The translations under genes were made by a program, and so were the position numbers. Positions 6,898 through 44,237 of a stretch of 44,237 nucleotides of DNA are shown here, piece after piece (positions within the stretch are counted from its first letter, which is position 1; each line of letters opens with the position of its first letter). Source of the stretch: Chiloscyllium plagiosum (lineage: Eukaryota). The notes beneath the pieces were generated by a model. The model had not been told where the DNA came from. It worked only from the letters and a program-made list of their open reading frames with translations, and made no database searches. The stretch lies in assembly GCF_004010195.1 (NCBI RefSeq), contig NC_057753.1, positions 14,603,236 through 14,647,472 on the forward strand, given 5' to 3'.

Positions 6898-7604
6898 GGA
6901 CGTTTACTTCAGTAATTATCGACTGTGTATTTCTTGTCAGATATGCTCTTTGTAGGACGTGGGGTGTGTATGTTTTTTCTGAATATGTGTGTGTCTCTGT
7001 GTCTGTGTGTGTGTATGTGCATGTCCATCTATCAATGCGTGTTTGTCTGTGTAGGTGTTTCTGTGTGTGTGGATGTGTGTGTGTGTTTGTGTGTGTGTGA
7101 GAGTGTGTGTCTGTGTGTGTGTGTATATAGGTCTCTGGGTCTCTCTATGTGTGTGTGTGTGTGTGTGTGTATCTGTTGATGTGTGTGTAGGTGTTTTTGT
7201 GTGTATGGATGTGTGAGTGTGCACACATATGTGCGTATATGTCTCTGCGTCTGTCTATGTGTGTTTGTGTGTGTATTTATGTGCGAGTGTCTGTCTATGT
7301 GTGTACGTTTGTGTGTGCGCACGTGTGTACATGTGTGTGGGTCTATGCTTCTGTGCAAATATGTACATATAAGTACCTCAGTGAGTGTAAAACAACTGAG
7401 CCTGTAGCTTAGTTATACTGATGAAAGAGAAATTAGTTGAGGGAATTAGATTAATGGTGTTAACAGCCAGGTTCATTCAGATATCCATGGAAACCATCGT
7501 CTGAGGTAAAAAGAGTGCCTGTGTCTTTCAATGCCATCGGTAGGACAGGCAACAGAATATGATAGCAACCTGAGAAGGTTATTGTTCGGCAGTATAGCAT
7601 TGGG

Positions 7605-7662
7605 TGAGTTTTGCAAGCAGCAATCAACTTTGGCAGTGGGACCAGACTAATAGTGAAGCCTG
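7605..7662 (+). pseudogene. TRAJ: J with defective heptamer, VLQAAINFGSGTRLIVKP
   Basis: GGTTATTGT 7577-7585, 12 bp, CATTGGG 7598-7604; donor GTAAGT intact. Confidence 0.8.
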
Positions 7663-7780
7663 GTAAGTGTTACCCTTGTCAGAAATCAGATTGTTAGATT
7701 GACATGTCACAGAAACTGACAGACAGACCGATTGGACAGAGGGACTGAGAGATCTAATAGACTGGACCAATAGACTGACA

Positions 7781-7965
7781 CAGGTCAGGCAGCATCCAAA
7801 GAGCAGGAGAATCGACATTTCGGGCATGAGCCCTTCCTGAAGAAGGGCTCATGCCCGAAACGTCGATTCTCCTGCTCCTTGGATGCTGCCTGACCTGCTG
7901 CGCTTTTCTAGCAACACATTTTTTCAGCTCTGTTCTCCAGCATCTGCAGTCCTCACTTATATCTC
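7781..7965 (+). mobile_element. Palindromic Penelope-like terminal-repeat insertion with hammerhead-like core
   Basis: 56-bp inverted arms 7781-7836 and 7842-7897 (2 mismatches); 14-bp direct repeat CCAATAGACTGACA at 7767-7780 and 7966-7979. Confidence 0.8.
7837..7864 (+). ncRNA. Minimal hammerhead-ribozyme-like core
   Basis: CTGAAGA-A-GGGC-TCAT-GCCC-GAAA-CG-TC matches CUGANGA / helix II / GAAA / UH, with palindromic ACGU replacing helix III. The 5' strand of helix I appears missing in this copy. Confidence 0.6.
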
Positions 7966-8354
7966 CCAATAGACTGACAGGTCAGACAAACTGATATGCA
8001 AAATAGACTGGTCAGGCAGACTGACAGGTAAAATGACTGGGTCAGAGAGACTGACAGGTAAAATAGACCGGGTCAGAGAGACTGACAGAGAGTGACAGGC
8101 CGGAGAGACTGACGGGACAGGCAGGCTGACAGATCAACAGACAGTTGACCGGCATTTCAAACTGACATGTCATACTGAATGACAATTCGCCCACCAGGCT
8201 GATGAAGAAGACCAGGATCAAAAAGAACAGACTGACAGGGGAGATTTTGTTTCGCCAGGACAGGCAGACTGGCAGAAGAGATAGACACAGACAACTGTGA
8301 AAACATCAAGTGAGTAACAGGGAGGGCTTTTTTGTCAGGCTGTGTCAGGCTGTG

Positions 8355-8415
8355 GGGAGTGATGGCAACTGGAAGCTCACGTTTGGGAGTGGGACCAGAC
8401 TGACAGTGGAGCCCA
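8355..8415 (+). CDS. TRAJ: J segment GSDGNWKLTFGSGTRLTVEP
   Basis: CTTTTTTGT 8327-8335, GGCTGTG 8348-8354; donor GTGAGT. Confidence 0.9.
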
Positions 8416-8968
8416 GTGAGTATTGTCCTGTCAAATTTCCACGCCAGGGGTCTGACTGAAGGGAACTGCTCACTGTCATCTGGAAAATTTATTATCTGAA
8501 AAACGCATACAGTAGATGTTGCTAGCAACTGGCGGTGAGGGTGAGGCAGTCTAGGTCAGTGACAGGACTTTCGGGATTAGCATAATTCCTGGGAATTGCA
8601 ATGGGACTAGTGGCTGTGTGAGTGTGTGGATGGTTTGATGTCCGGTGCTGTGGAGGGGATTCTGCTGTAGTTCCTCAAAATTAGCAGGAGGTCTCGTTTG
8701 CAAACAGACACTAAATTCCAGACAAATATCGAGCAGCCAGTCCTGGAAGTAAGCTGGGTTTCTGCGCTCTGGAGAGAGGGACAGTCATTAATAGAGGAAA
8801 GATACAGTGAAAATAAATGATTATAAATCAGAGACGGAGGCCTGAGATTGTGAATATACAATTGCCTCAAGTCGATAAGATATAAACATGGCGTTCAATC
8901 AATTTTGTCAGACGATGTACTGTACATCAGCCTGTTAGGGAGTTTCTGCACTGCTCTGTAATACTGTG

Positions 8969-9025
8969 TGAATGATTACAACAAGCTGATATTCGGAACT
9001 GGGACTAGACTAAATGTTCAAGCCA
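8969..9025 (+). CDS. TRAJ: J segment NDYNKLIFGTGTRLNVQA
   Basis: AGTTTCTGC 8941-8949, TACTGTG 8962-8968; donor GTAAGT. Confidence 0.93.
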
Positions 9026-23379: not shown

Positions 23380-23833
23380 GTAGGTATTCAGTAACACATC
23401 CACACAGCTTATGCCTCCTGTGTGTGTGCGTGTGTGTATGTGTGTGTGTGTGTGCGCGTGTGTGTGTGTGTGTTTGTGTGTCTCTGTACAAAACATCCAC
23501 TGAGATCTCCACATGTGAAATTCATCGTGAATATCAGATGGGTTCTGTCCCTTTGCTTTCTCGAGTTAAACCCTACAATGTCTGAGGAGATTAGCCTGTG
23601 GGGATTGAAGTGGGAATCTACCTGAGAGAATAGAATTCGATAGCGACTCAGAGAGGCTCCTCAAAACAGGAAAACTCTCTAGTTGGAGAGTGAAATCTCC
23701 TTCCACAGAGTACATAATCTCAACAGAAATTATCCCGAGGTTCTCATTAATTCCTGAGCACCCAATCGATTTCTGTAAACAAGCCTACAACATCTCGTAC
23801 TGGTTAAAGTAATCTTGACCATGAGAAAATGTT

Positions 23834-23877
23834 GGGGTCGAGAGTGGGGTGCTGGAGAAGCTCAGCAGGTCAGGCAG
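23834..23877. mobile_element. Truncated left arm of the palindromic insertion
   Basis: Same left junction (ATGAGAAAATGTT|GGGGT) as full copies at 30351, 31615 and 33145; the remainder and some flank are deleted. Confidence 0.75.
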
Positions 23878-24138
23878 TCAGATACAGGGGGTTAGTGGTC
23901 ATTGAGCAGCAGGCTGTAGATCAGACTGAAAGCATTAATCTTGTCACAGTCAATTGCACTGAGAAATTAGTCCAATTAGAGAAACATTATCCTGTTTTGT
24001 AAATGTACTTTCCTGAATTGCTTTCTGTTGCTACCCAATGATTAATGTGTTAATCCCCACTCTGTACCCACCAGAGAATAAAGATGGTAATGATCAGTCC
24101 CACTGGGATGGGTTTTTGTTGAGGGGCGCAGTGCTGTG

Positions 24139-29771: not shown

Positions 29772-30350
29772 GTAGGTATTCAGTAACACCTCCACACAGC
29801 TTACGACTTTTTTTGTGTGTGCATGTGAATGTGTGTTTGTGTGTGTTTGTGTGTGTGTGTTAGTCTGCGCGCATGTGTGTGTGTCTGTGTGTGTTTATGT
29901 GTGTCTGTTTGTGTGTGTCTATATGTCTGTGTGTGTTTATATGTCCATGAGTGTGTCTGTGTGTGTTTCTGTACAAAGCATTCACTGAGATCTCCAAATG
30001 TCAAATTCACCTTGAATATCAGTTTCTGTCCCTTTGCTTTATAGAGTATACACCCGACAATGTCTGAGGTGATTATCGTGTGTGGATTGAAATGGGAATC
30101 TTCCTGATTACTCAGATCTGTGGGAACGATTCAGGGGAAACCAAGGGTAGAATTAGATAGTGATTCCGAGAGGCTCCTCAAAACAGGAAAACTCTCCAGT
30201 TGGACTGATAAAGCTGCTTCCACAGAGTACGTTATCTCGACAGAAATTATCATGAGGTTCTCATAAATTCCTGAGCAGCCAATTGATTTCTGTAAACAAA
30301 CCTACAACATCTCGTACTGGTTAAAGTAATCTTGACCATGAGAATATGTT

Positions 30351-30596
30351 GGGGTGGAGAGTGGGGTGCTGGAAAAGCACAGCAGGTCAGGCAGCATTAG
30401 AGGGAGCCGGAGAATCGCTGTTTTGGGCATAAGCCCTACATCAGGAAATGTTTTTCATCAGAAATTCTTGATGAAGGGCTCTTGCCTGAAACGTCGATTC
30501 TCCTGCTCCCTCTGATGCTGCCTGACCTGCTGTGCTTTTCCAGCATCACACTTTTGACTCTAACCTCCAGCACCTGCAGTCCTCACTTTCCCCTCT
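30351..30596. mobile_element. Palindromic Penelope-like insertion with degenerate hammerhead-like cores
   Basis: Long inverted arms; ~13-bp duplication at 30338-30350 and 30597-30609; core TTGATGA-A-GGGC-TCTT-GCCT-GAAA-CG-TC at 30468-30495. Confidence 0.8.
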
Positions 30597-30911
30597 ATGA
30601 GAAAATGTCCGCTACTTTGGTTTGTATAATGTGGATCTTTTAGTGACCACCTCCAATACAGGAGGCAAGTAGTCATTGAGCAGCAGGCTAGGGATCAGAC
30701 TAAAAGCATTAACCTTGTCACAGTCAGGTGCCCTGAGAAATTATTCCCATTGGAGAAACATTATCCTGTGCAGTAAATATTCGTTCCTGAAGTTGCTCTC
30801 TGTTGCTACCCAATGATTAATGTGTTAATCCCACTCTGTACCCAGCAGAGAATAAAGATGGTAATGATCATTCCACTGGGGTGGGTTTTTGCTGAGGGGC
30901 GCAGTGCTGTG

Positions 30912-31291: not shown

Positions 31292-31614
31292 GTAGGTATT
31301 CAGAACCAGCTCCACACAGCTCACGTCTGGTGTGTGCATCTGTGTGTGTGTGTGTGTGTCTATATGTCTGTAAGTCTGTCTGTTTGTGTGTGTGTGTTAC
31401 TGTATCTGTGTGTGTCTGTGTCTGTGTGTGTCTCTATACAAAGCATCCACTGAGATCTCCACATGTGAAATTCATCTTTAATGTTGGACAGTTTCTGTCC
31501 CTTTGCTTATAGAGTTCATTATCCTCATTAATTCCTGAGCACCCAATCGATTTCTGTGAACAAATCTACAACATCTTGTACTGGTTGTTGTAATCTTGAC
31601 CATGAGAAAATGTT

Positions 31615-31862
31615 GGGGTGGAGAGTGGAGTGCTGGAAAAGCACAGCATGTCAGGCAGCATTAGAGGGAGTAGGAGAATGAACGTTTCGGGCATAAGTCC
31701 TTCATCTGGAATTGTTTTTTTCATCAGAAATTCTTCATCAAGTGCTCTTTCCCGAAACATTGATTCTCCTGCTCCCTCTGATGCTGCCTGACCTGCTGTG
31801 TTTCTCCAACACCACACTCTCGGCTCTGTTCTCCGGCACCTGCAGTCCTCACTTTCTCTTCC
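31615..31862. mobile_element. Palindromic Penelope-like insertion (duplicated copy)
   Basis: Same site and duplication (31602-31614, 31863-31875) as 30351. Confidence 0.8.
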
Positions 31863-32177
31863 ACGAGAAAATGGTCGCGACTTTGGCTGGTATAATGTGG
31901 ATCTTTTAGTGACCACCTCCAATACAGGAGGCAGGTGGTTATTGAGCAATAGGCTATGGATCAGACTGAAAGCATTAACCTTGTCACAGTCAGATGCACT
32001 AAGAAATTATTCCCATTAGAGAAACATTATCCTGTTCAGTAAATATTCCTTCCTGAAGTTGCTCTCTGTTGCTACCCGATGATTAATGTGTTAATCCCAC
32101 TCTGTACCCACCAGAGAATAAAATGATAGCGAACACTCCCACTAGGGTGGGTTTTTGTTGTGGGACGCAGTGCTGTG

Positions 32178-32555: not shown

Positions 32556-33144
32556 GTAGGTATTCAGTAACACCTCCACTCACCTTACATCTGGTGTGTG
32601 TGTGTGTCCGTGCATGTTTCTACACGAAACATCCACTGAGATCTCCATATGTGAATGTAATCTTGAATATCAGATGGTTTCTGTCCCTTTCTCCACACAC
32701 CTTACATCTGGTGTGTGTGTGTGTGTGTGTGTGCGTGTGTGTGTGTGTGTGTGTCCGTGCATGTTTCTACACGAAACATCCACTGAGATCTCCATATGTG
32801 AATGTAATCTTGAATATCAGATGGTTTCTGTCCCTTTGCTTTACACTGTTAACCCCTACAATGTCTGAGGTGATTAGCCTGTGGGGATTGAAGCGGGAAT
32901 CTTCCTGAGTACCTGGATCTGTGGGGAAACTTCAGGATAAACCAAAGATAGATTGAGATAGCGAGTCGGAGAGGTTCCTCAAAACAGGAAAACTCTCCAG
33001 TTGGACAGTGAAAATTCCTTCCACAGAATACATTACTTCAACAGAAATTAGCATGAGGTTCTCCTGAGCACCCAATCGATTTCTGTGAACAAATCTATGA
33101 CCATCTCATACTGGATAAAGTAATCTTGACCATGAGAAAATGTT

Positions 33145-33391
33145 GGGGTGGAGAGTGGGGTGCTGGAAAAGCACAGCAGGTCAGGCAGCATCAGAGGGAG
33201 CAGGAGAACCGACATTTTGGGCATTAGCCCTTCATCAGGAACTTCTTTATCATCAGAAATTCTTGATGATGGGCTCTTGTCTGAAACATTGATTCTCCTG
33301 CTCCCTCTGATGCTGCCTGACCTGCTGTGCTTTTCCAACACCACACTCTCAACTCTGATCTCCAGCACCTGCAGTCCTCGCTTTCCCCTCT
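33145..33391. mobile_element. Palindromic Penelope-like insertion (duplicated copy)
   Basis: Perfect 13-bp ATGAGAAAATGTT at 33132-33144 and 33392-33404. Confidence 0.82.
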
Positions 33392-33706
33392 ATGAGAAAA
33401 TGTTCGCTACTTTGGTTTGTATAATGTGGATCTTTTAGTGACCACCTCCAATACAGGAGGTAAGTGGCCATTGGGCTGCAGGCTATGGATCAGACTGAAA
33501 GCATAAACCTTGTCACAGTCAGATGCGCTGAGAAATTATTCCCATTGGAGAAACATTATCCTGTGCAGTAAATATCCTTTCCTGAAGTTGCTCTCTGTTG
33601 CTACCCAATGATTAATGTGTTAATCCCACTCTGTACCCACCAGAGAATGAAGATGGTAATGGTCACTCCACTGGGGTGGGTTTTTGCTGAGGGGCGCAGT
33701 GCTGTG

Positions 33707-41064: not shown

Positions 41065-41738
41065 GTAGGTATTCAGAAACACCTCTATACTGTTGATGTC
41101 TATTATACGAGCGTCTTGTGTGTATAATTTCCTCTTTGTAAAGCATCCACTGAGATCTCCACAGATGAAATTCATCTTGAATATCAAGCGTTTCCTGCCC
41201 CTTTGCTTCATAGAGTATAGAGGAGAAAGTGAGGACTGCAGGTGCTGGAGTATAGACCCTACAGTGTCTGAGGCGATTAGTGTGTGTGGATTGAAATGAG
41301 GATTGCCTGGAGTTCATGGATGAAGGGGAATGGTTCAGGGGGAAACGCAGGATAGAATCAGAGAGCATAGGCAAGTGAGCTATCAAAGCAGTATCACTAT
41401 CTAGTTTGAAAGAGCAAGTTGCTTCCACCGGGATGATTTCAATAGACATTATCTTGATCTTCTCATTAATTCCTGAGTGCCAAGTTGATGTGTGTGAGTT
41501 CTGTCAATATGAACTGATGCCTGGACATCTCTGAGTATCCCAGGTCCACACTTGTCCAGGTCACACTCAACACACTGAGATATGATTCATTAACCTGGCA
41601 CTTTGATAGATTGGGGCCAGAGAGGGAGAGTGTGAGGAGTGTCTCTCTGCGTTCAATGGAGGGACGGCTACCTTAGATTGTTAACAGCAAATCTCACAGA
41701 CTAATAACCGACTCTCGGAGTTTGGGTCACATGGTGTG

Positions 41739-43873: not shown

Positions 43874-44237
43874 GTAGGTATTCAAAAACAACTCTATACT
43901 GTTGATGTCTATTAAACGAGCGTCTTGTGTGTATAATTTCCTCTTTGTAAAGCATCCACTGAGATCTCCACAGATGAAATTCATGTTGAATATCAAGCGT
44001 TTCCTGCCCCTTTGCTTTATAGAGTATAGAGGAGAAAGTGAGGACTGCAGATGCTGGAGTATAGACCCTACAGTGTCTGAGGCGATTAGTCTGTGTGGAT
44101 TGAAATGAGGATTGCCTGGAGTTCATGGATGAAGGGGAATGGTTCAGGGGGAAACGCAGGATAGAATCGGAGAGCTCAGGCAAGTGAGTTATCAAAGCAG
44201 TATCACTATCTAGTTTGAAAGAGCAAGTTGCTTCCAC

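Follow-up and report, generated by a model that had tools for sequence, protein, structure and literature searches.

The window analysed here, a stretch of 44,237 nucleotides, carries a short palindromic insertion with a hammerhead-ribozyme-like centre among gene segments resembling T-cell receptor (TCR) J segments. This raises the question of where the insertion came from, how its inverted arms were built, and whether its ribozyme could act on the transcripts that include it. The original prediction, made from the sequence alone, had taken it for a Penelope-like retroelement footprint of doubtful ribozyme activity.

Setting and anatomy of the insertion

Across the window, 51 J-like motifs were identified, all on the plus strand, with 9 upstream and 42 downstream of the insert, and the listed J segments are preceded by a recombination-signal-like sequence and followed by splice donors. 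Judging by the J motif, by a spacer of 12 nt, and by how many segments there are, the window would correspond to a TCR-alpha J array, and sharks have been described as carrying many alpha J segments (PMC5931798). The insert starts 118 nt past the splice donor of the nearest upstream J segment, and its hammerhead core is sense-oriented relative to transcripts using upstream J segments. Both the position inside a J array and the sense orientation in a J-C intron are thus as originally proposed, the core being on the plus strand like all J segments. The heptamer of the nearest upstream J segment (CATTGGG) is non-consensus, and this segment may be little used. The features of the insert and its surroundings are:

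7577-7664, plus strand: nearest upstream J segment, with a 12-spacer recombination signal (RSS) at 7577-7604, an FGSG motif at 7629, and the donor GT at 7663-7664
7767-7780: left target-site duplication CCAATAGACTGACA, 14 nt, or 20 nt with the common CAGGTCAG included and CA slippage allowed
7781-7836, minus strand: left arm, an inverted copy of element positions 7842-7897
7835-7836, plus strand: helix I remnant (5' strand), 2 bp with 7865-7866, within the junction TTC
7837-7841: fold-back loop, 5 nt
7837-7864, plus strand: minimal type-I hammerhead core, fitting the consensus in Fig S3 of PMC4209133 except in helix I length
7842-7897, plus strand: right arm, sense copy
7898-7965, plus strand: sense-only 3' extension, 68 nt
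7966-7979: right target-site duplication CCAATAGACTGACA
7978-7985, plus strand: target 8-mer CAGGTCAG, which also opens the left arm (10/11 with the next three letters)

The 185-bp insert (7781-7965) was read directly from the sequence. Re-reading of 7767-7979 confirmed the predicted insert length, 14-bp repeats, and 56-bp inverted arms exactly, except that the length of the direct repeat, although correct as read, is ambiguous: since the right flank repeats the start of the left arm, the duplication measures either 14 nt or, if a slip of 2 nt (CA) is allowed, 20 nt. The two 56-nt arms are paired at 54 of 56 positions, with two mismatches and the 5-nt loop between them, and form a hairpin of -125.1 kcal/mol (z -16.7, with 0 of 200 shuffled sequences equally stable). 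At the turn, the sense copy stops 0-3 nt before C3, and TTC is common to both arms. The surrounding flank (7690-8290) is a degenerate 13-30-nt repeat based on GACTGACAGGTCAG, and it is from this repeat that the match with the minus strand of the element comes.

An abundant repeat family with older copies in the same array

Four public runs (X4, X5, and X11 for DNA, X21 for RNA) were aligned to 7560-8460 at 85% likeness. Matching contig records, whose counts are not copy numbers, amounted to 63,335 in X4 and 6,940 in X5, both from organism A, and 71,268 in X11, from organism B. Nearly all were on the insert; leaving aside local peaks on J segments, depth over the flanks ranged from about 7 to 25, and was about 12 for X4 and X11. 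Such counts show the insert to be a member of a repeat family that is very abundant in both organisms. Run X4 spans both junctions (no difference over 7560-7808; 8 differences and 2 gaps over 7928-8460), hence another haplotype carries the insertion. Among the joints listed for the three DNA runs, none represented an empty site; a contig of organism B ends at 7779, and 7994-8024 had no coverage. Loose ends upstream of 7834 agree in all four runs on the five letters CCTCA and are then mixed (agreement 0.34-0.48), and about 75% of the family depth at loop-II position 7850 is T, when the insert has C in both arms. No description of this family was found in the literature covered, with Dfam, Repbase, and subscription journals outside its scope.

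Additional members of the family were detected within the window:

33132-33404: older, independent insertion of the same family, with a target duplication at 33132 and 33392, an inverted arm, a 34-42-nt tail, and decayed cores
30338-30608: the older insertion again, duplicated along with its J cassette and keeping the same flanks
31602-31875: the same older insertion, third cassette copy
23821-23878, minus strand: deleted remnant of the older insertion, left-arm start only
41213-41256, minus strand: family insertion reduced to the tail, flanked by 9-nt direct repeats GAGTATAGA
44022-44065, minus strand: cassette duplicate of the tail-only insertion

The copies at 30.3, 31.6, and 33.1 kb have common flanks and a common target duplication, which identifies them as one older insertion copied along with its cassette and rules out three independent events. 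More broadly, the J array (about 16000-44237) was expanded by cassette duplication, as seen from common flanks at ~23.8, 30.3, 31.6, and 33.1 kb, and also at ~41.2 and 44.0 kb. The older insertion turns at the same hammerhead edge as the insert at 7781-7965, its inverted arm is ~35 nt longer than the insert's left arm, and the last 35-40 nt of the insert's 3' extension match its one-sided tail and the tail-only copies. Loop II of the older insertion reads CTCT in the right arms and TTAT, TAAT, and TTAT in the left arms of the three cassette copies; given that the arms differ there and that 7850 and 7851 are family-variable, two templates are suggested. The centre of the older insertion is complex and includes a second partial antisense copy of the core start (CATCAGAA). 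The tail-only insertion retains just ~26 nt of tail, and its 9-nt repeat overlaps the element at the 5' junction. Target-duplication lengths in the three events are 14 (or 20), 12-13, and 9 nt.

A complete hammerhead core with a weak helix I

The core at 7837-7864 reads CTGAAGA-A-GGGC-TCAT-GCCC-GAAA-CG-TC, exactly the letters of the original prediction, and includes all conserved hammerhead positions. CUGAAGA (7837-7843) is followed by an extra A (7844, after A9), a 4-bp helix II (7845-7848/7853-7856, loop UCAU), GAAA (7857-7860), and the palindromic helix III ACGU at 7860-7863, also as predicted, with would-be cleavage after C7864. These features are those described for minimal hammerheads (min-HHRs) by Cervera and De la Pena (2014, PMC4209133), namely CUGANGA and an extra nucleotide after A9, a helix II closed by G-C (G10.1-C11.1), GAAA-CG-UC, and a palindromic helix III (15.2/16.2). 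Where the insert departs from that description is in helix I, which needs 3 bp and is 2 bp both here and in a Drosophila virilis variant, and in having its core buried in a 56-bp hairpin. Table S1 and Fig S3 of the same study include no cartilaginous fish.

We scripted the min-HHR descriptor as published (PMC4209133 Fig S7) and applied it to both strands of the window. The core contains the CUGANGA(+N), helix II of 3-7 bp with a 3-10-nt loop, and GAAANNUH of the descriptor, and ACGU provides the palindromic helix III that allows dimers. With helix I relaxed to 2 bp, this core was the sole match in the window on either strand, for a chance expectation per shuffled window of 0.0067 (0.043 without helix I; 300 shuffles). 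At the published 3-bp minimum, no match was obtained on either strand of the window, because helix I of the insert is 2 bp. The core of the insert is a degenerate relic rather than a descriptor-positive min-HHR. An Rfam scan of 7000-9000 yielded no hammerhead match at E<=10. Its 15 weak matches were all below gathering score and mostly to miRNA hairpins, which we discarded as generic hairpin matches far under their gathering scores.

The helix I partner had also been predicted to be truncated. Judging by the loose ends, family letters upstream of the core appear to be ...CCTCA-TTC-CTGA, which would give a helix I AUUC/GAUU of 2 bp, a U.U, and 1 bp. The copy in the insert would therefore have lost about one pair, as predicted, but of an already weak helix, helix I of the family seeming hardly stronger than that of the insert. 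Among the variants listed, those in the core are limited to N7 (7841) and loop II (7850, and 7851 via its mirror 7827), a density (2/28 positions) similar to that of the flank (8/94). The older copies in the window carry broken cores.

The ribozyme is probably inactive at this locus

In folding predictions, helix II had a probability of 0.0000 in either the whole insert or a 440 nt context, and forcing the hammerhead fold cost 38.4 kcal/mol relative to the hairpin, and still 5.7 when just 7 nt of the left arm were retained. In these models, it is the hairpin and not the truncation of helix I that blocks the hammerhead fold. The left arm is transcribed before the core and locks it in the 56-bp hairpin, so that RNA of the J-C intron would not be expected to self-cleave. 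No second intact core that could contribute to a dimer was found in the window. The ribozyme of the insert is thus probably dead, and both the doubt originally cast on its activity and the suggestion that the long hairpin masks the core hold up in light of the 2-bp helix I, the helix II probability, and the energy penalty.

Sequencing data were also considered. In RNA run X21, 2,858 of 12,955,460 reads mapped to the region, on both strands and with practically none on the flanks; without reads on unique flanks, this run is uninformative on the insert's own locus. These 2,858 family reads displayed no pile-up of ends, which is a weak test in a fragmented poly(A) single-cell library. In run X5, seven contigs match the element from 7865 onward only, with unrelated letters before (133 contigs do so at 7834). 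Position 7865 is the would-be cut site and is absent among the starts listed for the other three runs, and these contigs may either derive from cleaved RNA or represent noise.

We also considered whether TCR transcripts that use an upstream J might be influenced by the motif, acting as a ribozyme (active or protein-assisted) or yielding a processed hairpin RNA. The core nucleotides are all intact and sense-oriented, the insertion is present in at least one other haplotype (run X4), and the hammerhead of a Penelope-like element has been shown to be protein-assisted (PMC11167929). However, such assistance is unlikely to open 56 bp, and the size of the folding penalty, the early transcription of the left arm, the 2-bp helix I, and the lack of a second intact core in the window all argue against activity. 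In addition, even dimers of the min-HHR class are described as cleaving weakly (PMC4209133; Lunse et al., as cited in the review PMC6765202, deal with dimer cleavage), and X21, with the limits noted above, shows no end pile-up. An effect of this kind on TCR transcripts is very improbable, and we would be surprised to find that the hammerhead has any function at this locus.

Relationship to Penelope-like elements

Within the window, no reverse transcriptase or endonuclease open reading frame (ORF) of Penelope type was identified, and a tblastn search of the window with three Penelope-like ORF fragments returned no match. No relative turned up among longer proteins for a read-through peptide (ATG at 7851, 47 aa, extending into the flank), a result that carries little weight. 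Family-specific DNA patterns had 0 matches in viral contigs and 0 in prokaryote genomes. A generalised core pattern, in which helix I was left free, matched at least 119 loci in metagenome contigs (49 of the 119 listed loci are under 1.5 kb), which have the core alone, and not the flanks, in common with the insert. Same-strand Penelope-like ORF ends were located <=700 nt upstream of 41 of 129 listed cores, including 3 that are the query fragments' own loci, and downstream of none. For the Pfam GIY-YIG domain, one of the three query fragments scored above the cut-off, one below, and one had no match. Mean helix I length in these metagenome loci was 2.8 bp vs 1.4 bp in shuffled sequences (0 of 2000 shuffles; 49 dereplicated contexts among the listed loci), and this covariation of helix I indicates that the core class is a real hammerhead elsewhere. 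A head-to-head copy was found <=600 nt upstream of 22 of 117 listed cores, 12 of them within 52 nt, with pairs counted from both sides. At one metagenome locus (L034, 62-90, minus strand), the same core belongs to an unrelated family, and there too the inverted arm turns a few bases ahead of CTGA, in the geometry of the insert. Two others (L024, 3592-4197, minus strand; L076, 28-837) include core-adjacent Penelope-like ORF ends with a CxxxxCxxC linker before a GIY-YIG-like part, a linker described as a feature of the Neptune clade (PMC8557442).

The layout of the insertion points in the same direction. In published accounts of endonuclease-bearing (EN+) Penelope-like insertions, an inverted copy truncated at its 5' end lies alongside, and one side alone bears a tail of 30-40 bp (Craig et al. 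2021, PMC8557442); target duplications measure 8-10 bp, and the inverted junctions are palindromic (Arkhipova et al. 2013, PMC3846280). The insert likewise contains an inverted, 5'-truncated head-to-head copy with a palindromic junction and junction microhomology, a one-sided 3' extension (68 nt, and 34-42 nt in the older insertion), and a target duplication that varies in length between the three events. Unlike the published EN+ insertions, it is 185 bp long and has no ORF at all, and its sense-only extension is longer than the published tail, which speaks against a Penelope-like stub; the 68 nt result from the inverted arm starting at the target-matched site. Min-HHRs in the pLTRs of metazoan Penelope-like elements are reported mostly as single copies from truncated elements, with some opposite-strand pairs (PMC4209133). 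By an indirect link, through analogy with these insertions and through the same core adjoining Penelope-like ORF ends elsewhere, the insert would be a Penelope-like element, in support of the footprint originally proposed.

Two other systems provide useful comparisons. For Poseidon, an Anolis carolinensis element examined in vitro by Frangieh et al. (2024, PMC11167929), the 3' end lies ~100 nt past the cut site, as in the insert, which itself spans that site and so would derive, as in Poseidon, from uncut RNA. No RNA ends are reported at the Poseidon cut site, and none are piled up in the insert-family reads. The position of the Poseidon ORF start corresponds to AAG in the insert's core, and the Poseidon initiation sites are described as lacking target homology, whereas the left junction of the insert has an 8-nt target match. 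Non-LTR retrozymes (10.64898/2026.07.22.740005), reported in one chondrichthyan genome, are short, non-coding, Penelope-derived, and carry a type-I hammerhead, all as in the insert, yet they are arranged as direct tandem arrays in which every unit has its hammerhead. The insert is a single inverted insertion with no direct tandem units: it is not a retrozyme array, and most probably an ORF-less insertion of a Penelope-like end module.

How the insertion may have been built

In our reading, which we hold with considerable confidence, the insert is a dead-on-arrival Penelope-like stub, i.e. a ~130-nt hammerhead-bearing end module that target-primed reverse transcription inserted between two J segments. 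We infer the following enzyme and order of events behind the observed anatomy, family abundance, and junction matches. The element's GIY-YIG endonuclease would cut both target strands, and the bottom strand would prime cDNA synthesis at the tail end (7965), with copying as far as the 5' boundary of the hammerhead (7834-7837). A second, antisense copy would then be made on the other side, begun at the 8-nt match between target and RNA (7897), and the two copies would be joined head to head over the common TTC. Purified Penelope-like protein is reported to cut and extend both target strands, and to initiate at two internal sites bounding the tail on uncut RNA (PMC11167929). The left arm starts at the sole 8-nt match of the target flank (7978-7985) to the element's minus strand, the next-best match being 4 nt. 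This would occur by chance at ~5 x 4^-8 if positions were independent, a figure for a single post hoc event in a flank of similar repeats that also needs a 2-nt slip. Such a start suggests homology-guided priming, and the 8-nt match would have been available both to a second target-primed cDNA and to a first cDNA folded back on itself.

The latter option, in which the palindrome arose by fold-back self-priming of one cDNA, has an appreciable though lesser chance of being correct. The 3' end GAA of the cDNA would fold onto the internal TTC, copy 56 nt, and jump to the 8-nt target match, which agrees exactly with the 3-nt overlap and 5-nt loop, dispenses with a 20-nt staggered cut, and was already proposed for Penelope-like palindromes (PMC3846280). 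The occurrence of the minority letter C7850 in both arms also favours a single cDNA, although it is compatible with either model. Conversely, the older insertion favours two templates, as its arms differ in loop II in all three cassette copies, and the enzyme extends both strands in vitro (PMC11167929). One copy cannot decide between the two. L1-type twin priming on one RNA, as usually defined, was ruled out by the presence of the same segment in both arms.

Separately, the ~130-nt module may itself be a non-autonomous, SINE- or retrozyme-like RNA mobilised in trans by a Penelope-like protein, which we regard as possible but on balance unlikely. The sequence TCATTCC, 4 nt before the core, resembles what we take to be an initiator start. 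The agreement of the loose ends over CCTCA alone is consistent with such a module, as are the common edge at which both independent palindromic insertions in the window turn, and the derivation of animal retrozymes from Penelope-like ends (preprint 10.64898/2026.07.22.740005). However, the mixed consensus further upstream is equally expected from heterogeneous 5' truncation, and tandem units like those of non-LTR retrozymes are lacking. Finally, the short, palindromic, duplication-flanked structure and high copy number could evoke a MITE or other DNA-transposon derivative, with a hammerhead-like string by coincidence. This is hardly credible for an insert in which the inverted repeats are not terminal, with 68 nt outside the right arm, in a family in which arm length, centre, and duplication length all vary and tail-only copies exist, and with a core that is unlikely by chance. 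The original prediction had named a MITE or DNA-transposon consensus as the outcome that would overturn it, and the family instead has non-palindromic copies and asymmetric arms.

Returning to the Penelope-like stub, a more speculative extension, offered as a tentative and rather doubtful proposal, is that short stubs are not random products. The template RNA would start at the initiator just before the hammerhead, so that internal initiation ~130 nt downstream would yield a complete short cDNA, and short target homology, as suggested by the 8-nt match at 7781, could override the fixed second-strand start.

Significance

Insertions of this kind have already been described, and the present one, most likely neutral, is probably an inert intron relic in an antigen-receptor locus. 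On its own it matters little, but it adds one observation on the construction of inverted arms by Penelope-like elements. A genome-wide count of arm starts and arm subfamilies could test two-template vs fold-back synthesis, and Penelope-like stubs could be used to order the J-cassette duplications. If stubs are indeed non-random, their junctions would constitute a natural record of second-strand synthesis by Penelope-like elements, a process still unexplained.
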